DNA of 13,974 bases. Source: Bacteroidota bacterium. GTDB taxonomy: Bacteria; Bacteroidota; Ignavibacteria; Kapaibacteriales; DASPKH01. Within the stretch, counting starts at the first letter, position 1, and the number at the start of each line of letters is the position of its first letter. Below are positions 1-13,974 of the stretch, piece after piece. Made by a program: the position numbers and the translations under genes. The DNA lies in assembly GCA_040386315.1 (NCBI GenBank), contig JAZKFS010000113.1, positions 1 through 13,974 of the forward strand. The letters are read 5' to 3'. The notes below the pieces were generated by a model, which searched no databases, was not told the origin of the DNA, and saw only the letters and a list, made by a program, of their open reading frames with translations.

Positions 1-326
1 AAGACCGAATGCATCACAAACCGAATGAACTTTCCGGCGGGCAGCGCCAGCGTGTAGCAATTGCCCGTGCGCTTGTTACAAAGCCATCTATCATTCTTGC
101 CGATGAACCAACGGGAAACCTGGATTCCAAAACAGGTGTGGAGATCATGCGCCTTTTTGAAAATATCTGGCGTCAGGGAAATACGGTAATTCTCGTAACG
201 CACGAAGAAGATATTGCGCGTCACGCACACCGTATTGTTCGCCTGCGCGATGGTTTGGTAGAATCTGATACGATAAATCCTGATCCGGTTACATTTGCGC
301 CGATTGATGAAAGTATTGCGCTATAG
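1..326 (+). CDS. ABC transporter ATP-binding protein, C-terminal part (MacB/LolD-like); 5' end lies outside the window
   Basis: The translation contains the ABC signature [15 protein letters not shown], the Walker B motif [11 protein letters not shown] and the H-loop VTHEED. The ORF-track Met at 9 is internal, so the reading frame is open from base 1. Stop TAG at 324-326. Two FtsX permease genes follow on the same strand. Confidence 0.9.
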
Positions 327-370
327 TTTTTAAAAAGTATTTTAAAAAACTATATAGAATTTAGTTCTTA

Positions 371-405
371 TCCCCCTTATTAAGGCGGACAAAGGGGGAC
401 TTTCA
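371..405. repeat. G/C-rich hairpin repeat (CCCCCTT-loop-AAGGGGG followed by ACTTTC) in the ATPase-permease spacer
   Basis: The 7-bp stem 372-378 / 392-398 encloses a 13-nt loop. The sequence is closely related to the reverse complement of 5813-5849 (tcccccttgataagggggacaaaggggattcc). It also resembles the H1 module (tctccctt..aagggagactttc) of the larger repeat at 1736-1986. Confidence 0.5.
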
Positions 406-475
406 AGAAAACTTTTAAAGTATCTTCTTTAATCTTTAAAAGAATATACTTTTAAAAACAAAAATAACTACCCAA

Positions 476-1711
476 ATGAAATTCAGCGAACTCATAGAAT
501 CTATCCGCATTGGCTTCGACTCGCTCCGGGCGAACCTGATGCGCTCGCTGCTGGCGATGGGCGGTATCATGATCGGTATTACTGTCGTTGTGCTGATGGG
601 ATGGGCGCTCCAAGGTTTGGATAAATCACTGGAAGACACTATCAACCTACTCGGAACCGATATGCTTTATGTAGATAAATGGAATTGGGCAGGCGGAAAT
701 AACTGGGAAACGGAACGCGCGCGTAAAAACATCACACTGCAGCAGGCGAATGAGCTTGCAGAGCGGCTGACGAGCGCCGAGCTTGCTATTCCGCTTTCAC
801 AGCAATGGGGAAAGACGATCACGTATGGTGATGAAAAGCTGGCGGGAATTATGATAACGGGTACGCGCAGCGAATATTCCCTCACGCCCGCCGGAACAGT
901 AACTGAAGGACGATTTTTCTCTGCTGTGGAGGATAGATACAGCGCTAATTCCGCCGTGATAGGTTATGGAGTTTCATCAGTTCTCTTTCCAAAAGGAGAT
1001 GCGATCGGGCAGACGATTAAAATTACTGGGCATCCTTTTAAAATCATTGGCGTGATCGAAAAACGCGGTACAATGTTGCTCGATTTTGTGGATAACCAGA
1101 TATTTATTCCTCTCTCCTCCTCTATCGGATTATTCGGTAACGGCAAAAGTCTCTCAATTGCTGTAAAAGCAGGAAGCGAGGCGCGTTTAGATGAAGTGCG
1201 CATGGAAACTATCGGTCTGATGCGCTCTATCCGCAATGTCGCGCCCGGACAAAAAGAAGATTTCTCCATAAATGAATCCGAAGCTTTTAAAGAGCAGTCG
1301 GCTACCTTGCGTTTATCAGTATGGGGAGTTGGTATCGGTCTTACCTTAATTTCTTTTCTTGTGGGAATTATCGGTATTATGAATATAATGTTCGTGTCGG
1401 TAACAGAAAGAACAAAAGAAATTGGTATCCGCAAAGCTATTGGAGCGCGGCGAAGCTCCATCCTGCTACAATTTATCGTAGAATCCGCTGCATTATGCTT
1501 TGCAGGAGCTATTGTAGCATTTGTGATAAGTTCATTTTTCACGTTTGCTGTTACGAAAGCGATGGATATTAAATTCCTCACGCCGTATGTACCGCCGCAG
1601 CTTTTACTTATAGCAACATTGGTTTCTATTTTTGTTGGTATTATTGCGGGAATTATCCCGGCATTCCGTGCAGCAAAGCTTGATCCGGTTGAAGCTTTGC
1701 GGTATGAGTAG
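476..1711 (+). CDS. ABC transporter permease, FtsX/MacB family (N-terminal TM helix, periplasmic domain, C-terminal 3-TM FtsX domain)
   Basis: 411-aa ORF. It has an N-terminal TM helix (LLAMGGIMIGITVVVLMG), the conserved FtsX box ERTKEIGIRKAIGA, and hydrophobic C-terminal helices ending ...AKLDPVEALRYE. It is a paralogue of the next gene. Confidence 0.9.
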   Translation: MKFSELIESIRIGFDSLRANLMRSLLAMGGIMIGITVVVLMGWALQGLDKSLEDTINLLGTDMLYVDKWNWAGGNNWETERARKNITLQQANELAERLTSAELAIPLSQQWGKTITYGDEKLAGIMITGTRSEYSLTPAGTVTEGRFFSAVEDRYSANSAVIGYGVSSVLFPKGDAIGQTIKITGHPFKIIGVIEKRGTMLLDFVDNQIFIPLSSSIGLFGNGKSLSIAVKAGSEARLDEVRMETIGLMRSIRNVAPGQKEDFSINESEAFKEQSATLRLSVWGVGIGLTLISFLVGIIGIMNIMFVSVTERTKEIGIRKAIGARRSSILLQFIVESAALCFAGAIVAFVISSFFTFAVTKAMDIKFLTPYVPPQLLLIATLVSIFVGIIAGIIPAFRAAKLDPVEALRYE

Positions 1712-1735
1712 TTTTTAAAAAGATTTTAAAACCAA

Positions 1736-1986
1736 GAGAATCCCTCTGTCCTTCGGACATCTCCCTTCCTAAGGGAGACTTTCTGTATGATTGTCATTCC
1801 TGCGGAGGCGGGAATCTCACTACAGTTAGACGCGTTGGGGATTTTCCTTTTTTTTAACAATACTTTTTAAAAACTCACAACATCATGTAGTCTCTTTCGG
1901 AGTGAGATTCCTGCCTCCGCAGGAATGACCACAGAAGAAAAAAAGTCTCCCTTAGAAAGGGAGATGCCGCAGGCAGAGGGATTCTC
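1736..1986. repeat. 251-bp composite imperfect palindrome: two inverted ~86-bp copies of a hairpin-bearing repeat unit flanking a 79-bp AT-rich centre
   Basis: The left arm is 1736-1821 (gagaatccctctgtccttcggacatctcccttcctaagggagactttctgtatgattgtcattcctgcggaggcgggaatctcact). The right arm is 1901-1986 (agtgagattcctgcctccgcaggaatgacc...agtctcccttagaaagggagatgccgcaggcagagggattctc). The right arm is the near reverse complement of the left, with a few mismatches and indels. Each arm carries hairpin H1 (tctccctt/aagggaga) and hairpin H2 (attcc/ggaat). A second copy of the unit is at 10915-11113. Confidence 0.75.
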
Positions 1987-2016
1987 TTATACTTTTAAAA
2001 GACTTTTTAAAACCCC

Positions 2017-3246
2017 ATGAACATCCTCGAATCTATAATGATCGCCCTCGAAGCTGTTCGCAGCCAGAAACTGCGGTCTGCGCTGACGCTGCTGAGTATC
2101 GCTATCGGTATTTTTGCTATTATCGGCGTGGGAACGGCTATCACGTCGCTTGATGGTGCTATCACGGGGCAGCTGGCGAGTATGGGCGAGAACTCGTTTG
2201 TTATAAAACGTACGCCGAGCATCCAGACAGGAAATTCGTGGCGTAAATACAGGAAGCGCAAGCCCATCACCTATTCGCAGGGAGAGGATTTTAAAAGGCG
2301 GATGGAGTCCACCACGCAGATCAGCATGAGCAATTCCACAGGTGGAATGACAATAAAGGCGGCTACGCTCTCCACCAATCCTGATGTATCTCTCACCGGC
2401 TGCGATGATGTATATTTCAGCAATAATAGTATTGATGTTTCCGAAGGGCGGCCTTTCGCGGCGGATGATATTTCTCTCAACCGTCCGGTGGCGCTGATCG
2501 GGAATGATGTGGTGGTAAAACTTTTCCCTTATTCCACTCCCATCGGGCAGAGAATTACCATACAAAATCAATCTTATACTATCATAGGACTTTTAAAAAC
2601 AAAAGGGGCGATGCTGGGACAGAGCCAGGACAATCAGGTACTGATCCCCATCTCACACTTCATGCGGTACTTTACCAATGAGTGGGAAGAGTCCATTGAT
2701 ATAATGGTGCGGGCGGATAATCGCCAGGCATTGCCGGAAACGTTAGATGAAGCGATCGGTACGCTACGCGCCCTGCGCAATGTAAAGCCCTGGGAAGAGA
2801 ATAATTTTGAAATAGAAACGGGCGAATCCCTTGCCGAACAGTTCGCGGGGTTTACCGGGTTTTTGTCGAACTTTGGTCTGCTGGCGGGGGGATTTGCGCT
2901 GGCGGCGGCGGGGATCGGCATTATGAATATTATGCTCGTCACCGTCAAGGAACGCACCCGCGAGATCGGTATCCGCAAGGCAATAGGCGCGCGCAGCACA
3001 TGGATACTCACGCAGTTTATCGTGGAGGCCATCACGCTATGCCAGCTGGGGGGTATTATTGGTATTATCCTCGGTATTTTTGGCGGCTGGGGCCTGAGTT
3101 CGCTTATGTCGCTCCCGCTTTCACTTCCCGTGGGGTGGATAGTAGGCAGCGTGGTGATCTGTACGCTTATCGGCCTCTGCTTTGGGGCATATCCCGCGTG
3201 GAAAGCTGCTAAGCTCGACCCGATAGAAGCTCTACGGTATGAGTAG
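2017..3246 (+). CDS. ABC transporter permease, FtsX/MacB family (second paralogue)
   Basis: 409-aa ORF. N-terminal TM helix (LTLLSIAIGIFAIIGVG), FtsX box ERTREIGIRKAIGA, and a C-terminus ...AKLDPIEALRYE that is almost identical to the end of the preceding permease. Confidence 0.9.
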   Translation: MNILESIMIALEAVRSQKLRSALTLLSIAIGIFAIIGVGTAITSLDGAITGQLASMGENSFVIKRTPSIQTGNSWRKYRKRKPITYSQGEDFKRRMESTTQISMSNSTGGMTIKAATLSTNPDVSLTGCDDVYFSNNSIDVSEGRPFAADDISLNRPVALIGNDVVVKLFPYSTPIGQRITIQNQSYTIIGLLKTKGAMLGQSQDNQVLIPISHFMRYFTNEWEESIDIMVRADNRQALPETLDEAIGTLRALRNVKPWEENNFEIETGESLAEQFAGFTGFLSNFGLLAGGFALAAAGIGIMNIMLVTVKERTREIGIRKAIGARSTWILTQFIVEAITLCQLGGIIGIILGIFGGWGLSSLMSLPLSLPVGWIVGSVVICTLIGLCFGAYPAWKAAKLDPIEALRYE

Positions 3247-3271
3247 CAGCTCCCTACAATATATAATGCAG

Positions 3272-3314
3272 AAAGGCGGAAAAGTTTTAAAGCTCTTCCG
3301 CCTTTTTGCGTTTT
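3272..3314. terminator. Rho-independent terminator (bidirectional geometry) downstream of FtsX permease 2 and of the convergent PIN gene
   Basis: The sequence aaaggcggaa-aagttttaaagctc-ttccgccttt forms a perfect 10-bp GC-containing stem. It is followed by tttttgcgtttt and preceded by an A-run on the opposite strand. Confidence 0.65.
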
Positions 3315-3330
3315 AAAGAGATACTATATT

Positions 3331-3729
3331 CTAACTACGTTTAAATTCATCAATTTTCTTAACCTGCACGGTTTTATCTATTCCCTGAAAATCATCCCAA
3401 TCATCAGTTATTAAATCCGCACCTAAACTTTTGGCTGTCGCTAATATAATTGCATCAGGTAATTTAATTTTTCTGAGTGTATTTTTCCTGTACTCAATTA
3501 CCTGTTCGGCAATAGCAGCATGGACTTCTACTATATCCAGATTATTAAACATTTCATCAATTAAGCCCTTTTCGCTCTCCTCCGAAAAATTATAGCCATA
3601 TACTTCCATAAAGCTAATAATGGAAATATATACCTCATCATATATAGAAAGCAACCGCTCAATATCTATCTTTTGTTTAGAAGCAAAAATGATAACATTC
3701 GTATCCAGTACTACTTTATTCCCACTCAT
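3331..3729 (-). CDS. vapC: PIN-domain ribonuclease, VapC-like type II toxin
   Basis: The N-terminus MSGNKVVLDTNVIIF has the PIN signature. The usual conserved acidic positions appear to be present (D in LDTNV, E in SFMEV, D in DAIILATA, D in LITDDWDD). I use the second ATG (3727-3729) rather than the ORF-track start at 3762. This puts a PIN-typical N-terminus on the protein and leaves only a 14-nt overlap with the upstream small gene. Confidence 0.85.
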   Translation of the reverse strand: MSGNKVVLDTNVIIFASKQKIDIERLLSIYDEVYISIISFMEVYGYNFSEESEKGLIDEMFNNLDIVEVHAAIAEQVIEYRKNTLRKIKLPDAIILATAKSLGADLITDDWDDFQGIDKTVQVKKIDEFKRS

Positions 3730-3955
3730 CGCGCACCTTTCGCTGCCAGCCGGTAGGATCATCTATAGACGAAAACATATCATGCCCTTCCATTTTTTTA
3801 AAAGCGGTCAGCAGCGCTTTCTTCTTTGAAAGAAGATCATCAGGCACATCCAGGAGCACAATAATACGGGCATACGTATTCTCGTATTTATTATACTGCT
3901 CAGGCAGCCGGATCATGCCTTTCTCTATCTTGGTTGAGAATTCTAATGCATTCAT
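3716..3955 (-). CDS. Putative antitoxin partner of the PIN toxin (80 aa, family not recognised)
   Basis: A small ORF lies immediately upstream of vapC on the same strand and overlaps its start by 14 nt, which is typical type II TA architecture. The start is taken at MNALEFSTKIEKGMIRLPEQ... (ATG complement at 3953-3955). The longer ORF-track start at 4021 is possible but adds a hydrophobic, non-conserved-looking leader. An ACGT-rich near-palindrome (tttacgtaacgtaaa, 3981-3995) sits ~30 nt upstream and could be an operator. Confidence 0.5.
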   Translation of the reverse strand: MNALEFSTKIEKGMIRLPEQYNKYENTYARIIVLLDVPDDLLSKKKALLTAFKKMEGHDMFSSIDDPTGWQRKVRDEWE

Positions 3956-4032
3956 ATTATTTCTCTCGTAGTGTGATTTCTTTACGTAACGTAAAAATAT
4001 ACAAAGAATTTCATTTTGCATAGAAGGCTATT

Positions 4033-4067
4033 AAGCCTGACCCGATAGAAGCTCTGCGCTACGAGTA
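4033..4067 (+). other. Duplicated 3'-terminal fragment of an FtsX permease gene (encodes ...KPDPIEALRYE*), direct repeat of 3211-3246
   Basis: aagcctgacccgatagaagctctgcgctacgagtag (4033-4067) compares with aagctcgacccgatagaagctctacggtatgagtag (3211-3246) at 30 of 35 identical positions. The differences are mostly synonymous third-position changes, and the in-frame stop is retained. The two copies bracket the vapBC-like insert. Confidence 0.7.
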
Positions 4068-4098
4068 GGTTTTAAAACTTTTATTCTTTAAAAGAATA

Positions 4099-4130
4099 AA
4101 CGCCACCTTTTAAAAAGAGCGGCGTTTTAG
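4099..4130 (-). terminator. Probable rho-independent terminator downstream of the flotillin gene (minus strand), also 3' of the FtsX-remnant/TA region
   Basis: aacgcc (4099-4104) pairs with ggcgtt (4121-4126) around a 16-nt loop. On the minus strand the stem is followed by a T-rich tract (tttattctttt). An adjacent AT-rich hairpin ttattcttTAAAagaataa sits at 4081-4099. Confidence 0.4.
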
Positions 4131-4157
4131 TTTTAAAATGGGTTTGGTTTAAAAACC

Positions 4158-5693
4158 TTAATCCACCATCGTCCCATTGCCTTTTACTTCCTTTGCTTCT
4201 ACAATAGTCTCCGCCGCACTTTTTAAAACCGGCTGTGCATCGCTATTAGAAGAAAGGTGATTGAAAATATTAATACCGGTAGCATTTTCAATTGTTTCGG
4301 CAAGTGACAGGACCGCTGACGGCATCTGGTTGACGAGTCTGCCAAAGCTTCCACCGTTCGTACCGCCCTGATCTATCACGCTCATTTTATCAATATTGAT
4401 CTTATTGACCGTCGAGGTAAGCTGGGTGATAATTTCCGGCAGCATATTGAGGATAAATACTTTTTCGGCGTCTGTTCCGGCAGATTGATAGGTTTCGATC
4501 ATCGTTTTGATAACGCTCAGGCGGGCCTGTCCGCTTTCATTGATGGCAGCTGCTGCTCCCTGCGCTTCTAGTTCGGCTGCTTCTTTTTTCGCGCGGGCGG
4601 GTTCGATCACATCAGCCTGTAGTTTCTGCTGCTGGAGAATTACACGCGCGCGCTGTACTTCCTGCTCAAACTGTACGCGGGCTTTTTCGCCGGATGTGCT
4701 GGCTTCCTGTTCTTTTACGATAGCGATCTTGTCTAGTTCAGCTTTGCGCACACGCAGATTGTTATTTTCATTTTCCACCTGCTGCTGTGCTATTGCCTGT
4801 GCTACACGGAGTTCGCGGTCTGATTCGATATGCGCGGCCTGGATAGTTTGCTGTGCGCGTGTTTTGGCAACTTCTGCGCGTTGATGCGCTTCGGCCTGGG
4901 CTTCATCGGCAAATGCCTGCGCGGCTGACTGCGCTTTCTTTACTTCGCGCTCTGTATCAATTTGCGCTGATTTAATTCCCTGCTCCGATCTTGCTTTGGC
5001 AACTTCCACACGCAGGCGTGCTGTAGCTTCTGCTTCTTCTGCTTCGGCAGCTTTTTCGGCTTCTGTAGTACGTGCGGCGGCAATTACCTCGGCAGTTTTA
5101 CGGCGGCCGATGGAATCTAAATATCCCGACTGGTCGGAAATATTCTGAATTTTAAAAGTATCAAGGCGAAGGCCCAGTTGTTTTAGATCTTCATCAGCTT
5201 CTTCCATTAGACTGTGAGCAAATTTAAGGCGGTCTTCGTTAATTTCTTCCGGTGTAAGCGATGCGAGAACCCCGCGAAGGTTTCCTTCAAGCGTATCTTT
5301 TGCAATTTCATGTATTCCCTCCAACGGCTTACCCAGAAAACGCTCTACAGCATTTCCAAATGTCGGCTCGGTAGAATCAATTTTCACGTTGGCAATTGCT
5401 TCCACGCCAAGAGGAATTCCCCCTTTGGAATACGCATTATGCACACTCAGCTCGATGGGAATAGTTTCCAGCGACATCTTAGCCGCCTTCTCTAAAATAG
5501 GGATCCGCACCGCGCGACCACCACGAATGATCCTGTAACCGACTGTTGTCCCGTCCGTCAGCGTACGCGAACGCCCCGAAAGGATCATCACCTCATTCGG
5601 GTGAACGATAAACAAGAACCTGCTGATGAAAAACATCACGACAACCAAAGCCAGCAGGATAATTCCGCCGACACTGAATATAAATTCGACCAT
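4158..5693 (-). CDS. Flotillin-like SPFH/band-7 protein (YqiK/FloT family)
   Basis: N-terminal hydrophobic anchor (MVEFIFSVGGIILLALVVVMFF), an SPFH-like region, then a long Ala/Glu-rich coiled coil (AEAEEAEATARLRVEVAKARSEQ...) typical of flotillins. It lies directly downstream of an NfeD-like gene. The start is placed at the ATG with a GGAGG Shine-Dalgarno 8 nt upstream (ATG complement at 5691-5693), not at the longer ORF-track start 5771. Confidence 0.85.
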   Translation of the reverse strand: MVEFIFSVGGIILLALVVVMFFISRFLFIVHPNEVMILSGRSRTLTDGTTVGYRIIRGGRAVRIPILEKAAKMSLETIPIELSVHNAYSKGGIPLGVEAIANVKIDSTEPTFGNAVERFLGKPLEGIHEIAKDTLEGNLRGVLASLTPEEINEDRLKFAHSLMEEADEDLKQLGLRLDTFKIQNISDQSGYLDSIGRRKTAEVIAAARTTEAEKAAEAEEAEATARLRVEVAKARSEQGIKSAQIDTEREVKKAQSAAQAFADEAQAEAHQRAEVAKTRAQQTIQAAHIESDRELRVAQAIAQQQVENENNNLRVRKAELDKIAIVKEQEASTSGEKARVQFEQEVQRARVILQQQKLQADVIEPARAKKEAAELEAQGAAAAINESGQARLSVIKTMIETYQSAGTDAEKVFILNMLPEIITQLTSTVNKINIDKMSVIDQGGTNGGSFGRLVNQMPSAVLSLAETIENATGINIFNHLSSNSDAQPVLKSAAETIVEAKEVKGNGTMVD

Positions 5694-5768
5694 TATTGAG
5701 CCTCCGAAAAAAAATATGAAAAGTTTTAAGAAACTGTATATTTGAATTTTCTTAAAAGTCCCCCTTAT

Positions 5769-5849
5769 CAAGGGGGATTTAGGGGGATTTCTTTTGACGC
5801 GGAATCCCCTTTGTCCCCCTTGATAAGGGGGGGGATAAGATTCTTTAGT
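5769..5849. repeat. Cluster of two poly-G/C hairpins (tcccccttatcaaggggga and cccccttgataaggggggg) in the nfeD-flotillin spacer; relative of the 371-405 repeat
   Basis: Perfect 7-8-bp C5TT/AAG5 stems with 3-nt loops lie at 5770-5788 and 5825-5847. The reverse complement of 5813-5849 closely matches 371-405. These hairpins sit in the spacer between the nfeD stop and the floT start. Confidence 0.55.
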
Positions 5850-5894
5850 TGTTTTTTTTATATACTTTTTAAAAGCAAAATAGAATCTCCTGCT

Positions 5895-6476: not shown

Positions 6477-6592
6477 GGCGCGTTTTACGTTTTTTGTGGT
6501 GTGGAGTTTTAAAACGAACTTGCTGTAAATTAGGCAAAAGTATTTTAAAAATCAAGAACTTAATTTTGGCGTGATCATTTTTAAAAAGAAAA

Positions 6593-6627
6593 AAGCGGAG
6601 TGAAAAATATTCACTCCGCTTTTAAAA
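6593..6627. terminator. Rho-independent terminator (bidirectional geometry) between the protease/small-ORF unit and the nfeD-floT unit
   Basis: aaaaagcggagtgaa-aaatat-ttcactccgctttt forms a perfect 10-bp stem gcggagtgaa/ttcactccgc with a 6-nt loop, flanked by an A-run and a T-run. Confidence 0.7.
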
Positions 6628-6647
6628 GAATTTTATTACCAGCTTTT

Positions 6648-6785
6648 TTACCGTTTACGAATGAAAAGCGACGTTTGCTTTTTCTCTTTTAAACGTTTTA
6701 AAAGTGATTTGCCAAAAGTTGTAATTTCATCCTGCGATTTTTTCTCAGCATCTATCCGCTCAAAAAGTGTTTTTGAATCTTTCAT
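6648..6785 (-). CDS. Possible small basic protein (45 aa: MKDSKTLFERIDAEKKSQDEITTFGKSLLKRLKEKKQTSLFIRKR); speculative
   Basis: This is the inner Met of the 94-aa ORF-track entry. The longer version would overlap the 3' end of the protease gene by 70 nt. The ORF ends 20 nt before the strong terminator at 6593-6627, so it is at least part of that transcript. No recognisable domain and no clear RBS. Confidence 0.25.
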   Translation of the reverse strand: MKDSKTLFERIDAEKKSQDEITTFGKSLLKRLKEKKQTSLFIRKR

Positions 6786-6861
6786 TAAAAAAATCCCGAC
6801 TCTATAATTAATAAGAAAAGTATGCTGTGTAAACTCTCTTATCTTGTTAATTGTTCCTGAC

Positions 6862-8157
6862 TTAGCGTGCGCCTCCTGCAATATCCTGCTCGTCATCTTC
6901 GCTGAATACATCGGGATTTTCCTCGATCTCACTTTCGGTAGTATCGCCGATCTTCGAGCGCAGCTCTAAATAACCATTGATATTTTTCAGATCTACCATT
7001 CCGATATACTGCCAGTTATCTACCACCATTAAGTGATTGCGCTCCGTTATTCTCATAATTTCAAGGGCATCATACGCGGGAGCATCAGGAGAAATAATGG
7101 TGGCTTCTCCAAAATCCTGCATAAAATCCTTTACTTTCTTGCCGCGCCATTTATTGGGAGGAATTCCCTGTATAGACTCCAGCGATATATAGCCAAGGGT
7201 TTTATCGCCGTCTATCACAGCGTAGAAATCATAAAAATGCTTATACGAATGCTCGTGAACAAGGTCGTATATATTCATGTCCGGCGTCACGGCCATACTG
7301 TTTGGATTTAAAAACTTCCGCACGGTATCATCTTTTAAAACCCGCCGCGACATTAAATGCCCGTACGACATCCGGGAAGCAATACGCACCGACAGCCCGG
7401 CTACAAACCACCACATACCTTCTACAAAGTCGGTATGGAGAAATTTATAAAATCCCAGCACCATCAAAGCAATACCCAGGATCGAACCGACATTTGCCGC
7501 AATACGCGTGGCATAGGCAATATTACGCCGCCATACCCAGATCAGCGCCCGCACCACACGCCCGCCATCAAGCGGGTATGCCGGAATAAGATTAAACGCA
7601 CAAAGCGCCAGGTTTGCCGTGGACAAAAACCGTAAAACTTCGACTGATGGCGCCGGCCAGTCATTATCACTGCCCTTCCCTTCAAGTATGGAAAATACAA
7701 ACCATAATATCAAACTAACCGCCGGCCCGGCCAGCGACAGCAGTATTTCTGATTTTGCCGTTTCGGGTTCATCTTCCTGCTCGGCTATCCCGCCAAAAAG
7801 GAAAAGAATGATCCGGCTCATCGGTGTTCCGACACTCCGCGCGGCAGCAATGTGCGCTACTTCATGCAGCAGCAGTGAGACAATATATCCTACCGCTCCT
7901 GCTAGTCCCATCATCCAGAATGTTCCGGTGGTAAATGTCGGCAACCTCTTCGGAAAAAGCTGTGTGGAAAGCGACCACATCATCAGAAAGATCAGCACGA
8001 TCCAGTACATATCCACGCGTATCTCCGCGCCAAGTATTTTCAATGTACGGAATGTCTTAAATATCGGTAGTGAACTGGTAACCATGGGCAATATTTTTTT
8101 AAAAGTGGATCGTGATGCGGTTTGGATTGCTTTTAAAAACATTTCAGCCAGCGGCAA
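6862..8157 (-). CDS. M50-family (site-2-protease-like) zinc metalloprotease with C-terminal tandem CBS domains
   Basis: HExxH motif in a TM helix (LLHEVAHIAAA), the second zinc-ligand/LDG motif (NLIPAYPLDGGRVV), multiple TM helices, then a CBS pair (…DLVHEHSYKHFYDFYAVIDGDKTLGYISLESI… / …ALEIMRITERNHLMVVDNWQYIGMVDLKNI…). The true start may be the internal Met giving MVTSSLPIFKTFRTLKILGAEIRVD (ATG complement at 8083-8085), which matches typical N-termini of this family. The longest ORF is reported here. Confidence 0.85.
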   Translation of the reverse strand: MPLAEMFLKAIQTASRSTFKKILPMVTSSLPIFKTFRTLKILGAEIRVDMYWIVLIFLMMWSLSTQLFPKRLPTFTTGTFWMMGLAGAVGYIVSLLLHEVAHIAAARSVGTPMSRIILFLFGGIAEQEDEPETAKSEILLSLAGPAVSLILWFVFSILEGKGSDNDWPAPSVEVLRFLSTANLALCAFNLIPAYPLDGGRVVRALIWVWRRNIAYATRIAANVGSILGIALMVLGFYKFLHTDFVEGMWWFVAGLSVRIASRMSYGHLMSRRVLKDDTVRKFLNPNSMAVTPDMNIYDLVHEHSYKHFYDFYAVIDGDKTLGYISLESIQGIPPNKWRGKKVKDFMQDFGEATIISPDAPAYDALEIMRITERNHLMVVDNWQYIGMVDLKNINGYLELRSKIGDTTESEIEENPDVFSEDDEQDIAGGAR

Positions 8158-8253
8158 CGTTCCGGCAATGAAATGTGAAACTTCGCTTTTAAAACCGCGT
8201 ATTTTTAAAGAATAACTTCAAACTTTTTTTAAAAGACTTTATTTCCCTTTCAC

Positions 8254-9237
8254 ATGAATATCCTCATCATCGGCGGAACGGTTTTTCTCGGACGCCACAT
8301 CGCAGAAACTGCTTTACAAGCCGGACACAAAGTTACGCTATTTAATCGTGGCATTCACAATCCCGAACTTTTTCCCGAAGCAGAGAAAATTCACGGCGAT
8401 AGGCGAAAAGATGTTTCACTTTTAAAAAACAGGAAATGGGACGCGGTGATCGACACGTCAGGATATTTCCCGAAAGATGTGAGCACGCTGGCGGAGGTTT
8501 TAAAAGGAAGTATTTCGCAGTATATTTTTATTTCCACAGTTTCCGTTTACTCAAATTTTGACAAACCGAATGATGAAAATTCCGAACTGGCGCAATTGCC
8601 TGAAGGCGCAGATGAAACGAAAATAACCGGTGAAACATACGGCGCATTAAAAGTTCTCTGCGAGCAGGAAGTTTTAAAAGCTTTTAAAAATGAAGCGCTG
8701 ATAATTCGTCCGGGTTTGATTGTCGGGCCGCACGATCCGACGGGACGATTTACGTATTGGCCGCGCAGAATTGCGCGTGGAGGAAATATCCTTGCGCCCG
8801 GAAATCCAGCCGCGCCAGTGCAGTTTATTGATGTTCGCGATCTTGCTGAATGGACAATTCGCCTTGTGGAGGCTCGCACGACGGGAATTTTTAATGCGAC
8901 GGGGCCAAAAGAGCTTTTAAAAATGGGTGAGTTTTTAAAAGAATGTAAAACAGTTTTAAAAAGTAACGCAGATTTTACGTGGGTAAGCGAGGATTTTCTT
9001 TTAAAAAACGACGTCGCTGCGTACACGGAAATGCCGCTGTGGATTCCCGCGCAGGCGGAAGATATGAGCCGCACGGATATTTCAAAAGCAGTTGAAAATG
9101 GTTTGACATTTCACGATTTAAAAACGACAATTGAGGATACTTTAGATTGGGATAAAACTATTATCGAGAAATTCCAGCAGGACGCCAGCATGACTACAGA
9201 GCGTGAGCAGGAGCTTTTAAAAGCGTGGAATCCGTGA
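8254..9237 (+). CDS. NAD(P)-dependent epimerase/dehydratase-family protein (extended SDR)
   Basis: N-terminal Rossmann dinucleotide-binding motif MNILIIGGTVFLGRHIA. Length 327 aa and overall pattern are typical of the NAD-dependent epimerase/dehydratase family. No specific substrate can be assigned from sequence alone. Confidence 0.8.
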   Translation: MNILIIGGTVFLGRHIAETALQAGHKVTLFNRGIHNPELFPEAEKIHGDRRKDVSLLKNRKWDAVIDTSGYFPKDVSTLAEVLKGSISQYIFISTVSVYSNFDKPNDENSELAQLPEGADETKITGETYGALKVLCEQEVLKAFKNEALIIRPGLIVGPHDPTGRFTYWPRRIARGGNILAPGNPAAPVQFIDVRDLAEWTIRLVEARTTGIFNATGPKELLKMGEFLKECKTVLKSNADFTWVSEDFLLKNDVAAYTEMPLWIPAQAEDMSRTDISKAVENGLTFHDLKTTIEDTLDWDKTIIEKFQQDASMTTEREQELLKAWNP

Positions 9238-9264
9238 TTTTAAAAAATCCTTTTTAAAAACAAT

Positions 9265-9975
9265 TTACTTCACAGCGTCAAGTACAGGTTTTAAAATTGC
9301 CCACACATTTTCAGCAACGATACGGTGTCCTTCCGCCGTCGGGTGAATGCCGTCCTGCTGATTCAATTTTACTACACCGCCAACTTTTTCAAGAATAAAC
9401 GGAATAAACGCAAGCCCGTTTTTCTGCGCTAAATCGCTGTACATATTTTTAAAATCTGCCGTATACTTCTGCCCGAGATTCGGCGGGAGCTGCATTCCCG
9501 CGAGAATTATTTTTACATCGGGATATGTGGATTTTGTTCTGTCAATTATTGCCTGAAGATTTTTTCGTGTATCCTCCACCGGAACGCCGCGCAGACCGTC
9601 ATTTGCGCCAAGCTCCAGCACCATGATGTCTATTTTTTCTTTTAAAAGCCAGTCAATTCTGCGTAAACCTCCGGCTGAGGTTTCGCCGCTCACGCCTGCG
9701 TTGATACTTTTAAAAGGAAGTTTTAAAGAATCAATTTTCTGCTGGATCAATGCCGGGAATGCTTCGGAAAGCTCCACGCCGAAACCTGCCGTAATGCTAT
9801 TGCCAAGAAAGAGAATGTTTTTAAAAGAAGTCGTTTGATCTGAATTTTGCGTTGCTGCGGGCGCGGATGTTTCAATCGTTGCAGTTGTGTTTTCAGGAGC
9901 TTTTTTGCAGGAGGAAAATAGCGTTACAGCTATTAATAATGCTGCCGGAAAATGTTTCGGGAAACTTGTTCTCAT
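9265..9975 (-). CDS. tesA: SGNH/GDSL hydrolase, TesA-like (acyl-CoA thioesterase I / lysophospholipase L1-type) lipoprotein
   Basis: Lipoprotein signal peptide with lipobox (LIAVTLFSSC). GDSL block ILFLGNSITAGFG, block III MVLELGANDGLRG, and catalytic block V DGIHPTAEGHRIV. It lies divergent to a ybbA-like ATPase gene exactly as tesA does to ybbA in E. coli. Residue-level similarity to E. coli TesA is recalled from memory. Confidence 0.9.
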   Translation of the reverse strand: MRTSFPKHFPAALLIAVTLFSSCKKAPENTTATIETSAPAATQNSDQTTSFKNILFLGNSITAGFGVELSEAFPALIQQKIDSLKLPFKSINAGVSGETSAGGLRRIDWLLKEKIDIMVLELGANDGLRGVPVEDTRKNLQAIIDRTKSTYPDVKIILAGMQLPPNLGQKYTADFKNMYSDLAQKNGLAFIPFILEKVGGVVKLNQQDGIHPTAEGHRIVAENVWAILKPVLDAVK

Positions 9976-10068
9976 ACTTCGCCGTATAGTTGGGTAAATG
10001 TTTTTAAAAGAAATTATTTTTTAAAGGATACTTCGACTAGCTCAGTATGAAAATTCGGTGAGCTTTTT

Positions 10069-10104
10069 AAAAACTCAAAACTCAGAATTCAAAACTCAAA
10101 ACTA
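10069..10104 (+). promoter_or_regulatory. Tandem AAAACTC heptamer repeats (x4, interrupted by GAATTC) immediately upstream of the ybbA-like start
   Basis: aaaactcaaaactcagaattcaaaactcaaaactac ends 8 nt before the ATG at 10112. It sits in the tesA/ybbA divergent promoter region. Function unknown; it could be an operator or UP-like element. Confidence 0.35.
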
Positions 10105-10111
10105 CTTAGAA

Positions 10112-10798
10112 ATGAACGTACTCGATATTCGCAACGTCAGCAAAACCTACCGCAGCGGAAAAACTAATCTCACCGTGCTTAAAGATATAGACTTTTCGCT
10201 TCCCGAGGGCGCCAGCTGCTCGATCGTTGGCCCATCGGGTTCGGGAAAATCCACTCTTCTGGGTTTGTGCGCCGGGCTGGACAGTCCGACCACGGGAACA
10301 GTCGCCATTAACGACGTGATATTGAACAAGCTAAACGAAGACAAGCGCGCACAAGTTCGCAATCAGTTCGTTGGGTTTATTTTTCAGAATTTCCAGCTCG
10401 TGCCGACGCTCACCGCGCTTGAAAACGTGATGGTTCCGCTGGAGCTGCGTGGTGAAAGCGGCAGCAAGCCGTTTGCACAGGAGCTGCTTAAGATGGTGGG
10501 GCTTGAGGCGCGCATGGGGCATTATCCGGTGCAGCTTTCCGGCGGTGAGCAGCAGCGCGTGGCGATTGCGCGGGCGTTTATTAATAAGCCGAAAATCCTT
10601 TTTGCTGATGAGCCGACGGGAAATTTGGACGGCGAAACAAGTGAGATCATTGCGAAGCTGCTTTTCGACCTGAATGCCACGCAGGGAACGACGCTTGTGC
10701 TGGTGACGCATGATCTTGACCTTGCGCGGAATACGCAGCGGATTATCCGGTTGAAGAGTGGGATGATTGTTTCGGATGAGATGAATGTGGCGGTGTGA
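10112..10798 (+). CDS. ybbA: ABC transporter ATP-binding protein, YbbA-like
   Basis: Walker A GPSGSGKST, signature [15 protein letters not shown], Walker [14 protein letters not shown]-loop VTHDL. Block-by-block similarity to E. coli YbbA from memory (e.g. [14 protein letters not shown]..I..LLFxLN...GTTL..VTHDL.LA). I choose the start MNVLDIRNVSKTY (10112), giving 228 aa, rather than the ORF-track 10058, because the upstream 18 codons are derived from the AAAACTC repeat. Confidence 0.9.
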   Translation: MNVLDIRNVSKTYRSGKTNLTVLKDIDFSLPEGASCSIVGPSGSGKSTLLGLCAGLDSPTTGTVAINDVILNKLNEDKRAQVRNQFVGFIFQNFQLVPTLTALENVMVPLELRGESGSKPFAQELLKMVGLEARMGHYPVQLSGGEQQRVAIARAFINKPKILFADEPTGNLDGETSEIIAKLLFDLNATQGTTLVLVTHDLDLARNTQRIIRLKSGMIVSDEMNVAV

Positions 10799-10914
10799 TT
10801 TTGTCTGAACTAGGATTTCTGGGATTTGAGGATTGAAGGATTTCTTTTAAAAGTTAGATTTTAAAAGGCTTCACGCAAAGGAAATGCGAAAAGCTGACGA
10901 TTTCCTGTTGACGT

Positions 10915-11113
10915 GAATCCCTCTGCCCTACGGGCATCTCCCTTAATAAGGGAGACTTTCTTCTGATGTGTTTTTTTAATTGTCATTCCCTTGAAAAAGG
11001 GAATCAACATCGGACGTTGCTTTAAAGCTTTTTGCCGTGAAGCAGAGTTTTTAAAAGCATTTTGCTTTTTGGCAACTGTTGGAGGAGATTCCCGCTTTCG
11101 CTGGGAATGACAG
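10915..11113. repeat. Second copy of the hairpin-repeat family: full left unit plus H2-type inverted partner; right outer arm absent
   Basis: 10915-10960 gaatccctctgccctacgggcatctcccttaataagggagactttc matches 1739-1790. 10981-11008 tgtcattcccttgaaaaagggaatcaac is module H2. 11084-11113 ggagattcccgctttcgctgggaatgacag is H2 in inverted orientation. The element lies inside the 573-bp ybbA-ybbP spacer. Confidence 0.7.
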
Positions 11114-11371
11114 TTTAAAAAAATACTTTTTAAAAGTTTAGATGATTGAATTAGTTTTTAAAGAAAATCCTTTAATCCTGAAATCCTATAAATCATAGTT
11201 CAGACGAAAATAAACAGGTGCTATTGACGGCAAGGGTGACCGCCCACTGCTGGTGGAATGATGTACGACCGGACACAAATAATTTCCTGATATTCTTTTT
11301 AAAAGTCTTTTAAAAGCTGGTGTTTTTAAAAACTTTTTCAATTTTACTTTTACCTTTTTACTTTTCAATAA

Positions 11372-13918
11372 ATGAATTTTCTCCGCGCACTTTTTGCTTC
11401 ATGGACGTATAAGATGGCGTGGCGCGACAGCCGCACGCATCGCCGGAAACTGCTGATGTTTATGTCGAGCATTGTGCTGGGCGTAGCGTCGCTGGTGGCG
11501 ATTGACGGGTTTGGCGAGAGTATGCAGGCGTCAATTGCGACGGAGTCGAAGTCGCTGCTGGGGGCTGACCTGGCGCTGGATAGTAAGCAGAAGTTTTCTG
11601 AGGATGCGGAGCGGCTGATTGATTCGATCGGGAGGACTTTTAAAGGTGAGCAGGCGCGGCAAACGAGCTTTACGTCGATGATCTACCTGCCGAAAAGTGA
11701 AAGTGCGAGGTTTGCGCAGATACGCGCGCTGGAGGGAAATTTCCCGTTTTACGGTGATTTTGAAACGGAACCGGCGGGTGTGACACGGCTTTTTAAAAAC
11801 AGTGAATTTGCGGTGATCGATGAGAGTTTTTTAAAAGAAGAGGGCGGCGTGATCGGCGATACGTTGCAGGTTGGCGCGGCAAAACTGATCATTAAAGGGC
11901 TTTTAAAAAAGGCGCCGGGCGAGGCATCGGTTGTGGCGATGGCTGCGCCGCGCGTGTATATTCCGGTTTCTGTCCTGGAAAAAACGGGTCTGCTTCAGCA
12001 AGGCAGCCGTATGCAGTATAAAGTGTTTTTTAAATTTCCGGAGAATGTTCGCGGGAAAGCGATCGGCGATTCACTGGATGTAAAGCTGACGAAAAATCAA
12101 ATTGATTACGAAACGCCGGAGTCACGGCAGCAGGCGCTGGAACTCGTTCTTGATAATGTCAACCGGTTTTTAAAACTTCTGGGTTTTATTGCGTTGCTGC
12201 TGGGCGGCGCGGGTGTGGCGAGCGCGGTGTATGCGTACATCCGGCAGAAACTTCCGACGATCGCGGTGCTGCGTTGCCTTGGCGCGACGGCTTCTCAGAC
12301 GTTTGCGGTGTATTGCGTGCAGGCGATCGCGATGGGATTTATTGGTTCGGTGGCGGGCGCGCTTGTCGGTGTGGCAATTCAATATTCCCTTCCCGCGATT
12401 TTTAAAGACCTCATTCCGTCTGACCTTTCGATGGTTTTGCCGCTGCGCTCAATTGGACGCGGAATCCTGACGGGCGTGGGAATGTCGCTGCTTTTTGCGA
12501 TGCTGCCGCTGCTTTCCATTCGTAAAGTTGAACCGTTTTCTGCGCTGCGTGCTTCGTTTGAGGAAGGCTTGCAAAAGCCTGATCCGCTGCGGTTTGTGCT
12601 ATATGCGGTGATCGCTGTTGCGGTGTATTTTTTCGCGTATGCGCAGACTGAAAATTACATTGCAGCAGCTGTGTATTCGGTTTCGCTTGCAGTTGTCTTT
12701 GGCGCACTGGCGCTGGCGGCGATTGTTTTACGAAAGCTTTTAAAAGCATTTTTCCCGGGTAGTTTTCCGTATGTGTGGCGGCAGGGTTTGGCGAATCTTT
12801 TTCGTCCGAATAACCAGACGCTGACGCTGATGGTAAGCCTGGGATTTGGTACGTTTTTAATTTCCATGCTGTATATTGTGCAGAGCAATCTTTTAAACCA
12901 GCTTTCCGTGGCGGGTTCGGCGGGGCAACCGAATTTCATACTTTTTGATGTGCAGAAAGACCAGCGTACGGGCGTTCTGGACATTTTAAAAACTAATAAA
13001 GCAATCATTGTAGATGAAGCGCCGATAGTTTCTATGCGCCTTGAAACGATCAAAGGCAAAACTATTGACGAAAATTCCGCTAACCCGAATGAGCGAATGA
13101 AAGTGATGCAGCGCGAATACCGCGTTACGTACCGCAATAAGCTCGCCGACAATGAAGAATTAACACTCGGAACGCTTCAAAAACGAGCGCCGGATTTGCA
13201 GCATGTACAGATCTCGCTGGCTGACCGGCTGGCAGAATTGTGGGAAGTGAAGATCGGCGATGAGATTCGTTTTAATGTGCAGGGGCTGATAATTAACGCG
13301 AAAGTGGGCTCGCTGCGCAAGGTGAATTTCAGGAAAGTGCAGACGAGTTTTCAGATCGTTTTTCCGCCGGGAGTTTTGGAAGATGCGCCGCAATTCTACA
13401 CGGTTATTATTAAAACGCCTAATAAAAACGGCGCCCAAATCCAAAGCCAGCTTGCGCAGAAATACCCGAATGTTTCCGCGATTGACCTCGGGCTGATCCT
13501 GGAAACGGTAGATAAGATCTTACAAAAGGTTGCCTCCATCATTCGCTTTATGGCGCTTTTCAGCGTGGTGACAGGGCTAACGGTACTGGCTTCAAGCATT
13601 ATCATTAGCCGCTACCAGCGCTCCCGCGAAAATGTCCTACTGCGGACGCTTGGCGCGACTGGCCGGCAGATCACGCTTATCACGCTGGCAGAATATTTCC
13701 TGCTCGGGCTACTTGCTGCGCTGACTGGAATGCTGCTCTCCTATCTCGGCTCGTGGCTGATGGTCACACAGGCGTTCCGTCTGGAATATAAACCGGAATG
13801 GGCTCTTGGGCTGGTTATTGCGCTTTGCGTAGCGCTACTTGTGATGATCATGGGATTTTTAAACAGCCGGAGTTCTTTAAAAATGCCGCCGTTGGAGGTT
13901 TTGCGGAGCGGGGTGTAG
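11372..13918 (+). CDS. ybbP: YbbP-like ABC transporter permease with two FtsX domains (848 aa, predicted ~10 TM)
   Basis: Large permease with two hydrophobic FtsX-type TM clusters (approx. aa 270-460 and 700-848), each following a soluble domain. The N-terminus (MNFLRALFASW…RRKLLMFMSSIVLGVASLVAIDGF) resembles E. coli YbbP. It follows a ybbA-like gene and is divergent to tesA, reproducing the tesA-ybbA-ybbP synteny. Confidence 0.9.
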   Translation: MNFLRALFASWTYKMAWRDSRTHRRKLLMFMSSIVLGVASLVAIDGFGESMQASIATESKSLLGADLALDSKQKFSEDAERLIDSIGRTFKGEQARQTSFTSMIYLPKSESARFAQIRALEGNFPFYGDFETEPAGVTRLFKNSEFAVIDESFLKEEGGVIGDTLQVGAAKLIIKGLLKKAPGEASVVAMAAPRVYIPVSVLEKTGLLQQGSRMQYKVFFKFPENVRGKAIGDSLDVKLTKNQIDYETPESRQQALELVLDNVNRFLKLLGFIALLLGGAGVASAVYAYIRQKLPTIAVLRCLGATASQTFAVYCVQAIAMGFIGSVAGALVGVAIQYSLPAIFKDLIPSDLSMVLPLRSIGRGILTGVGMSLLFAMLPLLSIRKVEPFSALRASFEEGLQKPDPLRFVLYAVIAVAVYFFAYAQTENYIAAAVYSVSLAVVFGALALAAIVLRKLLKAFFPGSFPYVWRQGLANLFRPNNQTLTLMVSLGFGTFLISMLYIVQSNLLNQLSVAGSAGQPNFILFDVQKDQRTGVLDILKTNKAIIVDEAPIVSMRLETIKGKTIDENSANPNERMKVMQREYRVTYRNKLADNEELTLGTLQKRAPDLQHVQISLADRLAELWEVKIGDEIRFNVQGLIINAKVGSLRKVNFRKVQTSFQIVFPPGVLEDAPQFYTVIIKTPNKNGAQIQSQLAQKYPNVSAIDLGLILETVDKILQKVASIIRFMALFSVVTGLTVLASSIIISRYQRSRENVLLRTLGATGRQITLITLAEYFLLGLLAALTGMLLSYLGSWLMVTQAFRLEYKPEWALGLVIALCVALLVMIMGFLNSRSSLKMPPLEVLRSGV

Positions 13919-13974
13919 CGGTTTTTAAAAACTATAATTTTTGGATACTTTTCCTTAATGTAATTGAACGTTCC

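Follow-up and report, generated by a model that had tools for sequence, protein, structure and literature searches.

The AT-only palindromic octamer TTTTAAAA recurs throughout a stretch of 13,974 bp (hereafter the window), which is the entire contig JAZKFS010000113.1 of the metagenome-assembled genome (MAG) GCA_040386315.1, labelled 'Bacteroidota bacterium' at the National Center for Biotechnology Information (NCBI), and throughout the DNA of its close relatives, within genes as well as between them. Comparisons with shuffled sequences, orthologues, and sister genomes show that a lineage-specific and sequence-specific pressure, acting at the level of the DNA, creates and keeps this word. On balance, and by analogy with cyanobacterial HIP1 (highly iterated palindrome 1), the explanation that best accounts for the data as a whole is probably, though by no means certainly, that TTTTAAAA is a lineage-specific element of the HIP class, namely a duplex tag read by a symmetric protein, likely for DNA uptake or recombination and in conjunction with methylation.

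An exact search of the window returned 60 copies of TTTTAAAA, the number that an earlier note on this DNA had approached by hand counting, with example coordinates that proved right within 1-3 nt; no octamer is commoner, and the reverse arrangement AAAATTTT has 0 copies in the window. The GC content is 45.7%, lower than the 50% or so first assumed, and base composition leads to a chance expectation of 0.4 copies, while 200 dinucleotide-preserving shuffles of the window contain a mean of 1.8 copies and a maximum of 6. Markov models of order 1, 2, and 3 expect 1.9, 3.3, and 8.0 copies, respectively. The earlier note had proposed nulls of order 3 to 5; when the higher-order models are run, orders 4, 5, and 6 expect 28, 52, and 59 copies against the 60 observed, but these nulls are circular and invalid for so abundant a motif because it dominates its own sub-words. 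Specifically, 84 TTTAAA hexamers are present in the window, 74 of them as TTTTAAA, 67 as TTTAAAA, and 60 within the full TTTTAAAA. Therefore, a masked background and codon shuffles were used instead. The gene model of the window places 28 copies in coding DNA (11.9 kb; 1 per 425 bp) and 32 in non-coding DNA (2.07 kb; 1 per 65 bp), in agreement with the densities estimated beforehand.

Extending the comparison to related genomes, as had also been suggested, revealed that the enrichment reaches beyond the window and is found in the relatives too. These were retrieved by a scan of genome collections and through protein homologues, have about 83-85% protein identity to the window, and come from independent assemblies; the sampling comprises four separate regions from three species-level genomes, plus two overlapping assemblies, for a total of five independent assemblies, and it covers about 77 kb, with longest stretches of about 21 kb and with the collection's own gene calls as gene models of the relatives. 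The octamer has 91 copies in 21.0 kb of a 252-kb contig of the Joint Genome Institute (JGI; Ga0485821_000060, L020), 40 in 9.6 kb of a Logan assembly (L021), 61 in 21.0 kb and 69 in 21.3 kb of contigs 1 and 2 of SMAG_U12031 (ENA/NCBI; L022 and L025, respectively), and 21 in 6.0 kb of a second JGI sample (L024). The density is 2.9-4.3 copies per kb in each of the sampled lineage regions, and the pooled 77.3 kb (the window and the regions of the relatives) hold 281 copies, corresponding to 3.64 per kb, or about 1 per 250 bases. An order-2 Markov model expects 17.3 copies in the pooled DNA, which gives an observed/expected ratio of 16.2, and the ratio rises to 54 when T/A tracts are masked in the background (5.2 expected). 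Coding DNA taken by itself has an order-2 ratio of 16-19, and non-coding DNA one of 9-10, on a background that the motif itself inflates. The motif is not a local repeat family and is shared across the close relatives sampled. Two proteins of the window, looked up exactly, had no entry on record.

The same word is missing from more distant genomes: three sister Kapabacteria genomes (62-64% GC; L027-L029) have 0 copies in 21 kb each, and 0 copies were found at 18 distant loci encoding homologues of an 848-aa permease of the window. Since the sister genomes are motif-free, TTTTAAAA marks an isolated clade of about 45% GC; the motif-bearing members (the window and L020-L026) have 44-46% GC against 62-64% in the nearest relatives by SerS, a protein that is 93% identical within the clade and whose next matches, at about 70-72%, derive from Kapabacteria, Kapaibacterium, and 'Chlorobi' MAGs. 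The large GC shift of the clade coincides with the appearance of the motif, which itself accounts for only about 3% of the bases. Neighbouring genes of the lineage encode Por_Secre_tail domains of the type IX secretion system (T9SS). One of the motif-bearing genomes, GCA_035628175.1 (SMAG_U12031; L001/L022/L023/L025/L026), carries the record label 'Patescibacteria group bacterium', which looks wrong because of these T9SS Por_Secre_tail proteins and of a SerS closest to Kapabacteria/Chlorobi MAGs.

The repeated unit is sharply defined. In the pooled data, a matrix of the bases flanking TTTAAA contains 281 T..A combinations against 17.3 expected, 51 T..G against 6.9, and 38 C..A against 6.6, while hexamers with neither a T nor an A flank number 23 against 28.5 expected; as the bare DraI hexamer is not enriched, the octamer is the unit. 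The one-off variants pointed out in the earlier note are real, yet they are concentrated at the two outer positions, with an observed/expected ratio of 3.3 at positions 1/8, 1.07 at 2/7, and 1.8 at 3/6, and the commonest ones have C at position 1 or G at position 8, both transitions. Moreover, AAAATTTT has 14 copies in the pooled data against 13.9-25.5 expected, and the remaining AT-only palindromic octamers are at background. A symmetric flank preference surrounds TTTTAAAA (not-A at -2, not-T at +2), and no conserved flanking sequence was found around the copies past positions -2/+2, so that the motif does not belong to any longer repeat. A strict inner TTTAAA with outer positions relaxed to Y/R would reflect a sharp, two-fold symmetric specificity, and the combination of this symmetry and sharpness suggests a protein that reads duplex DNA. 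The same specificity appears to point away from base composition, RNA signals, and a mobile element as the source of the copies.

The evolution of the sites was followed in codon alignments of 15 orthologue pairs with 66-91% (mostly about 80%) nucleotide identity, in which the sites are few (63 and 35 in the two comparisons). Motif sites are conserved between orthologues in 31/63 cases against 18% of same-frame control octamers (p = 2e-8), and among sites whose peptide does not differ, the motif 8-mer is the same in 25/35 cases (71%) against 29% of the controls (p = 3e-7), an increase of about 2.5-fold. Sites also turn over, 42/73 being present in only one of the two orthologues; some of these differences need 3-5 substitutions, and the change between CTG-CTT-AAG and CTT-TTA-AAA is wholly synonymous. 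Copies align without indels between orthologues, with one 3-nt exception, indicating that they arise by substitution. Copies are thereby shown to be kept, once present, more faithfully than the surrounding silent sites. New ones arise wherever the DNA tolerates them, as the motif nearly saturates the spacers and occupies variable protein positions and the two stop-free frames.

Inside the genes of the window, 19 of the 28 copies are read as NTT-TTA-AAA and the other 9 as NNT-TTT-AAA-A; the avoidance of the frame that would create a TAA stop, to which the earlier note had drawn attention, holds, but it is automatic in any open reading frame (ORF). Synonymous-codon shuffles within genes leave 3.4 copies (maximum 9 in 500 shuffles) against the 28 observed, an 8-fold excess, and shuffles of the codon order leave 1.0. 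Almost all [FLIV]-Leu-Lys tripeptides in the window (19/21) are spelled NTT-TTA-AAA with the exact motif. TTA represents 58 of the 423 Leu codons, and the impression that it is otherwise rare was right only in part, since with the 19 codons of the motif set aside it still accounts for 39/404 (9.7%). In the pooled data, 162/280 copies (58%) lie in genes, uniformly along the gene length (Kolmogorov-Smirnov p = 0.25), and the counts per gene are overdispersed, from 0 to 9 per kb.

The in-gene copies have also left a footprint on proteins. In SerS, the residues found in place of those of outgroup orthologues include the replacements VVxL->VLKL, AAK/R->AFK, LRKE->LLKK, and VLRP->VLKP. In SerS and in the epimerase of the window taken together, the core dipeptide encoded by the motif is common to 4% of the outgroups against 36-51% for control dipeptides (Mann-Whitney p = 5e-6), and at the motif sites of the epimerase the core Leu-Lys/Phe-Lys is common to 0-11% of 114 outgroup homologues. 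Judging from these comparisons, the motif-encoded residues are derived relative to the outgroup orthologues. Motif-type peptides number 5-9 per lineage protein in the two families against at most 2 in about 230 homologues, and homologues with a more AT-type amino-acid composition likewise show at most 2. A short DNA word can reshape proteins, with 5-9 extra Leu-Lys/Phe-Lys sites per conserved protein in the clade. The 8-fold excess over synonymous shuffles, the spelling of the tripeptides, the silent conservation (71% against 29%), and the derived residues bear out the proposal that selection acts on the DNA and not on the protein. The 19 NTT-TTA-AAA copies (e.g., 8420, 8672, 8915, 11829) put U_UUA_AAA in the X_XXY_YYZ register, known from the classical slippery heptamers of -1 ribosomal frameshifting; the in-gene motif may cost translational fidelity, or the lineage may tolerate the slippery register.

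The HIP-class reading proposes a mechanism in which duplex TTTTAAAA would be recognised by a symmetric, probably homodimeric, lineage-specific protein, and the abundance of the sites would be maintained either by selection on them or by a biased-conversion drive. The most likely role would be that of a self-DNA tag that favours the uptake and/or the recombination of conspecific DNA, and a methyltransferase with the TTTAAA core as its target would probably mark the tag. This role is favoured because of the analogy with HIP1 and with uptake sequences, and the functions that the motif may serve are argued purely from analogy. The earlier note had considered a DraI-type restriction activity very unlikely in this host; that deduction fails, because a cognate methyltransferase would protect the sites and cyanobacterial HIPs accompany methyltransferases.

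Several points weigh against a methylation-coupled self-DNA tag. No competence gene and no candidate binding protein were found in the approximately 77 kb of lineage DNA, and a search for the methyltransferase motif (D/N/S)PP(Y/F/W) in all ORFs of the window and of L020-L026 (the same 77 kb or so) returned only one spurious ORF over a repetitive extragenic palindromic (REP) module. The data do not separate selection from drive. The 12.8 copies per kb in non-coding DNA, the doublets, and the crowding at gene ends exceed what is described for HIP1 and for uptake sequences, and an array of DNA-binding sites at gene boundaries would account for them no less well; uptake sequences are, moreover, asymmetric and about four times sparser than TTTTAAAA. 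Lastly, adenine methylation of an AT-only site is without the deamination-repair route proposed for HIP1. We advance more tentatively, and would not call it probable, the idea that a protein system undescribed in the Fibrobacteres-Chlorobi-Bacteroidetes (FCB) group reads TTTTAAAA, having arisen independently of HIP1, either as a palindromic uptake/recombination tag or through a site-specific, chromatin-like boundary protein. If the tag were true, it would be the first palindromic self-DNA tag outside Proteobacteria and cyanobacteria and the densest known, and if the chromatin-like version were true, a protein would mark essentially every gene boundary. The gene content of the clade, compared with that of the motif-free sister Kapabacteria, could reveal the reader or the methylase. 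In practical terms, the k-mer and peptide signature is a marker for binning the clade, dating gene acquisition, and spotting mobile elements.

The arrangement of the copies between genes bears directly on the main rival explanation. In the pooled data, the density is 12.7-12.8 copies per kb in non-coding DNA against about 2.4-2.45 in coding DNA; 46/51 spacers of at least 20 bp hold at least one copy, and spacers of 27-41 bp can hold two. Within spacers, doublets 9-17 bp apart number 25 against 14.5 ± 2.9 expected (p = 0.001), copies at most 7 nt from gene ends number 28 against 19.2 ± 3.1 (p = 0.006), and 18/58 genes, where about 10% would be expected, have a copy whose first base falls at most 7 nt past the stop codon (p = 9e-6). 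In spacers of every type the density is high, at 12.6 per kb for tandem, 25.5 for convergent, and 10.4 for divergent ones, which, along with the uniform placement in genes, indicates that the motif fills unconstrained DNA and does not belong to a single type of signal; the excess at edges and in doublets is partly unexplained by such general filling. According to the rival explanation, the copies would serve as an array of sites bound by an abundant protein of the nucleoid-associated or boundary type, with a homodimer on each site, neighbouring sites about one helical turn apart, and a cooperative coating of intergenic DNA that would provide chromosome structure or insulation in place, while the in-gene copies would keep the chromosome evenly covered. 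The occupancy of the spacers, the excess of doublets (25 against 14.5) and of gene-end copies (28 against 19), the palindromic specificity, and the nucleoid-structure argument of Xu et al. for HIP1 are all consistent with it. However, a cluster at 10-14 bp is all that the spacing shows over the full set of copies, and neither helical nor other short-range periodicity was significant in intergenic DNA (global p = 0.18); the doublet and edge excess would also be expected if only parts of the spacers were free to change, no candidate protein is known, and the presence of the exact octamer within genes, at an amino-acid cost, is hard to explain by coating. On this evidence, a binding array is unlikely, although it deserves to be kept in mind.

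It is quite improbable that the copies are neutral, produced without any reader or function by a mutation or repair bias peculiar to the lineage or by its drop in GC from about 63% to 45%. The GC content of the clade, far below that of its sisters, the transitions that make up the commonest one-off variants, and the turnover of 42/73 sites are features that such a bias could leave behind. Nonetheless, the other AT-only octamers stand at background (see the counts of AAAATTTT above), as do the inner one-mismatch neighbours; in addition, conservation is 2.5-fold above that of control silent sites, and the AT-type homologues lack the protein footprint.

Very improbable as well is a punctuation of gene expression, read on RNA or by RNA polymerase, in which TTTTAAAA would act as a terminator T-tract, an AT-rich promoter or UP-like element, or an unstructured leader rich in A/U that allows translation to start in the absence of a Shine-Dalgarno sequence, and the in-gene copies would be spill-over. 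The five-fold higher density of non-coding DNA, the 18/58 genes with a copy at most 7 nt past the stop codon, the copies that merge with terminator T-tracts (6591-6627), and the lack of a Shine-Dalgarno sequence in most genes are compatible with this role. Conversely, the 58% of copies located in genes are uniformly placed, 8-fold over synonymous shuffles, and bought with amino-acid replacements, promoter-only and terminator-only spacers are equally dense, and the two-fold symmetry has no rationale in an RNA signal. Moreover, no fixed distance of the motif to start codons was found, scans for promoter-like and terminator-like elements returned counts at the shuffle level, and an Rfam search gave no match.

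The direct selection of DNA mechanics, whereby the straight T4A4 tract with its flexible and easily unwound TpA step would tune supercoiling or melting without a reader, is highly improbable. In its favour, TTTTAAAA prevails over AAAATTTT by 281 copies to 14 and is enriched in intergenic DNA, where strand opening matters; Hagerman, in 1986, reportedly found curvature in A4T4 repeats but none in T4A4 repeats. However, TTTAAA, TTTATAAA, and TTTTTAAA-type tracts are mechanically nearly equal, yet they are not independently enriched, and the restriction of the motif to one clade would be left unexplained. As to an origin of the copies in a small mobile element, such as a miniature inverted-repeat transposable element (MITE) or a REP family, whether as its ends, its fragments, or duplications of its target site, the chance is close to nil and the orthologue alignments already contradict it: copies do bracket the hairpin modules at 1711-2013 and 10799-11209, but there is no conservation past -2 to +2, the repeat families consist of the motif and chance flanks with 72-80% identity, in-gene copies align without indels, and the hairpin modules are rare in equally motif-rich relatives.

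The genes of the window, identified by Pfam and reading frames, encode MacB/FtsX permeases, ABC ATPases, a PIN toxin module, SPFH and NfeD-like proteins, an M50-CBS protease, an SDR/epimerase, and a GDSL lipase, and copies of the motif lie in the spacers between them. A doublet (328 and 340; 328..347) lies 1 nt past the stop codon of a 5'-truncated ABC ATPase gene, and a single copy (450..457) is found 18 nt upstream of the MacB1 start codon. The next doublet (1713 and 1724; 1713..1731) begins 1 nt past the MacB1 stop codon and makes up the left edge of a palindromic, REP/MITE-like spacer of 303 bp, which also holds a copy close to its centre (1865..1872; spacer 1711-2013), and a third doublet (1993 and 2005; 1993..2012) ends 4 nt upstream of the MacB2 start. 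A triplet (4070, 4108, and 4131; 4070..4138) separates a duplicated MacB 3' remnant from the SPFH stop codon, and one copy (5867..5874) sits between the SPFH start and the NfeD-like stop. Further on, four intergenic copies (6507, 6543, 6579, and 6620) span 6507..6627, the last of which merges with the T-tract of a bidirectional terminator-like hairpin with a 14-bp stem (6591-6623), and another four (8097, 8131, 8187, and 8227; 8097..8234) occupy the spacer from which the M50 protease and epimerase genes diverge. The epimerase gene converges with the GDSL gene across 27 bp, of which a doublet (9238 and 9252; 9238..9259) takes up 16, its first copy abutting the TGA stop. Two copies (10002 and 10065; 10002..10072) lie in the spacer where the GDSL and ABC ATPase genes diverge, a 573-bp spacer that also holds a MITE-like element has seven (10845, 10859, 11049, 11128, 11297, 11308, and 11324; 10845..11331), and a final copy (13923..13930) is located 4 nt past the stop codon of the gene for the 848-aa FtsX/MacB permease.

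Within genes, the SDR/epimerase has nine copies on the + strand (8420, 8498, 8672, 8682, 8915, 8933, 8954, 8999, and 9215; 8420..9222), corresponding to 9.2 per kb, and five of them are conserved in each of two relatives. The 848-aa permease gene has six on the + strand (11791, 11829, 11901, 12168, 12738, and 12984; 11791..12991), of which 4/6 are conserved in an 81%-identical orthologue, and the GDSL lipase gene has five on the - strand (9289, 9447, 9640, 9708, and 9819; 9289..9826). MacB1 carries one copy on the + strand (1036..1043), read as NNT-TTT-AAA-A (Phe-Lys), and MacB2 two (2289..2598, +), at 2289 (Phe-Lys) and 2591 (Leu-Leu-Lys). The remaining ones are on the - strand: one in a small antitoxin-like ORF adjoining the PIN toxin gene (3796..3803), two in the SPFH/flotillin gene (4221 and 5150; 4221..5157), one in an uncertain 94-aa ORF at 6648-6932 (6696..6703), and one in the M50/CBS protease gene (7333..7340).

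Some features of the window accompany the motif. Some intergenic copies form a sub-family with (T)ATAC in front of the motif, exemplified by ATACTTTTTAAAA (444-457, 1857-1872, 1987-2000, 5858-5874, 11121-11135); the -7 promoter box of Bacteroidota is TAnnTTTG, and these copies resemble it with T in the place of G, in an orientation to the downstream genes that is inconsistent. Most window genes are without a Shine-Dalgarno sequence (e.g., those starting at 476, 2017, 8254, and 11372), as is typical of Bacteroidota, while the SPFH gene (5693) has a clear GGAGG. Downstream of the end of MacB2 (3246), the PIN toxin gene (3331-3729, -) is followed by the small antitoxin-like ORF (3716-3955, -), and the 51-nt 3' end of MacB2 is duplicated at 4018-4068 with 80% identity, a third copy being the end of MacB1 (1661-1711); the region 3247-4068 gives the impression that a toxin-antitoxin cassette was inserted here and the end of the gene was duplicated in the process. 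Nested REP/MITE-like hairpin modules are located in intergenic DNA at 1711-2013, 10799-11209, 365-400, and 5755-5835. The 303-bp palindromic spacer (1711-2013) has arms of 72 nt and inner arms of 29 nt with 97% complementarity (GTCATTCCTGCGGAGGCGGGAATCTCACT), the MITE-like element at 10799-11209 measures 411 bp and has 54-nt inverted ends, and the hairpin elements have in common the modules GAATCCCTCTG..CATCTCCCTTnnTAAGGGAGAC and CCCCCTTATCAAGGGGG. In the related genomes these modules are rare or absent, and they have no match in Rfam; they were dropped as a lineage-specific probe, being too rare in the relatives.

A search of one literature library found no report of the hyperabundance of TTTTAAAA or TTTAAA in a prokaryote. 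Scans for motif clusters retrieved viral contigs that were, among the matches listed, chance AT-rich matches or terminators, and three enriched ones (L122, L180, and L193) were rejected as further cases since they contain local iteron-like arrays: L122 has GGTTTTAAAAA(A)G repeats, mostly with a 12 nt spacing, at 574-733, and L180 has AGCTTTTAAAAGCTTTTA-type repeats at 3574-4320. The arrays of L122 and L180 look like iterons or operator arrays, distinct from the genome-wide motif.

Among known systems, the inner hexamer TTTAAA is the recognition sequence of DraI/AhaIII, and a methyltransferase or endonuclease fold that reads TTTAAA is a plausible ancestor of the reader; unlike TTTTAAAA, however, restriction sites are normally avoided and not amplified, and bare TTTAAA is found 23 times against 28.5 expected. 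REP sequences, bacterial interspersed mosaic elements (BIMEs), and MITEs are, like the motif, abundant and short palindromic intergenic DNA, and hairpin modules of this kind co-occur in the window. Nevertheless, REPs are imperfect hairpins of 20-40 bp that are only extragenic and spread as units, whereas TTTTAAAA has no conserved flanks, forms no hairpin alone, lies in genes in 58% of cases, and aligns without indels. GATC occurs in E. coli about once per 240 bp genome-wide, roughly the chance frequency of a 4-mer. The GATC sites of Dam, which serve methyl-directed mismatch repair and origin sequestration, are likewise palindromic and similarly spaced, so that a function read through methylation is conceivable, but TTTTAAAA is an 8-mer driven 16- to 54-fold above expectation.

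Uptake sequences co-evolve with the proteome, accumulating at poorly conserved residues and inflating certain tripeptides (Findlay and Redfield, PMC2817400), and TTTTAAAA also reshapes peptides at poorly conserved residues. Further likenesses with the uptake signal sequences (USS) of Pasteurellaceae and the DNA uptake sequences (DUS) of Neisseriaceae, which are over-represented thousands-fold genome-wide and preferentially taken up by a competence machinery, are the accumulation through point substitution and the enrichment in non-coding DNA, often adjoining terminators. In contrast, USS and DUS lack symmetry, measure 9-12 nt, and recur about once per kb; TTTTAAAA is an 8-bp palindrome at 3.6 per kb.

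The closest counterpart is HIP1 (GCGATCGC), which has been studied for about three decades amid a debate over methylation-linked repair, nucleoid structure, and DNA uptake; to our knowledge, all known examples of HIPs, which include the alternate cyanobacterial forms GGGATCCC, TCGATCGA, and CAGGCCTG, are GC-rich and cyanobacterial. Both HIP1 and TTTTAAAA are hyperabundant and lineage-specific palindromic octamers found in coding and non-coding DNA. HIP1 has a frequency of 0.2-2.73 per kb and an observed/expected ratio of 16-317 (PMC5861425), and the thresholds for a HIP are at least 0.2 per kb and a ratio of at least 16 under a second-order Markov model (Xu et al. 2018). Further traits of the HIP class are a cognate orphan DNA methyltransferase encoded in the genome and a periodicity of 10-90 kb along the chromosome. 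The one-nucleotide deviations of HIP1 are biased to the first and last positions, and HIP1 accompanies methyltransferases for its inner core (Elhai 2015, PMC4390886). It is conserved by selection, Xu et al. argue that it has a role in nucleoid structure, and it has recently been reported to enhance natural transformation in a way that depends on methylation and proposed as an uptake signal. The likeness to HIP1 claimed in the earlier note holds on every signature tested (palindrome, thresholds, coding and non-coding presence, conservation, outer bias, and spread): TTTTAAAA is a perfect palindromic octamer with 3.64 copies per kb and a ratio of 16.2, is shared by related genomes in the sampled regions (about 77 kb), is conserved at orthologous sites above background (31/63 against 18%), and deviates at its outer positions (3.3 at 1/8 against 1.07 at 2/7).

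The differences are equally clear. The host of TTTTAAAA, an uncultured soil bacterium, belongs to another phylum (FCB group, related to Kapabacteria), and the word is AT-only in a 45% GC genome, whereas GCGATCGC has a GATC/CGATCG core; it is also denser (3.6 per kb against a published maximum of 2.73) and strongly over-represented between genes, at 12.8 against 2.4 per kb, with doublets. The methyl-cytosine mismatch-repair route proposed for HIP1 is inapplicable to TTTTAAAA because the site is without C. The octamer looks like a second and independent instance of the open HIP problem, in another phylum, with an unrelated AT-only sequence, and at a higher density, and a general explanation of HIPs must work without cytosine methylation or a GATC core. 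If an undescribed protein system of the FCB group does read TTTTAAAA in either of the two ways outlined above, highly iterated palindromes would be a recurrent, convergent form of bacterial genome organisation and not a cyanobacterial peculiarity.

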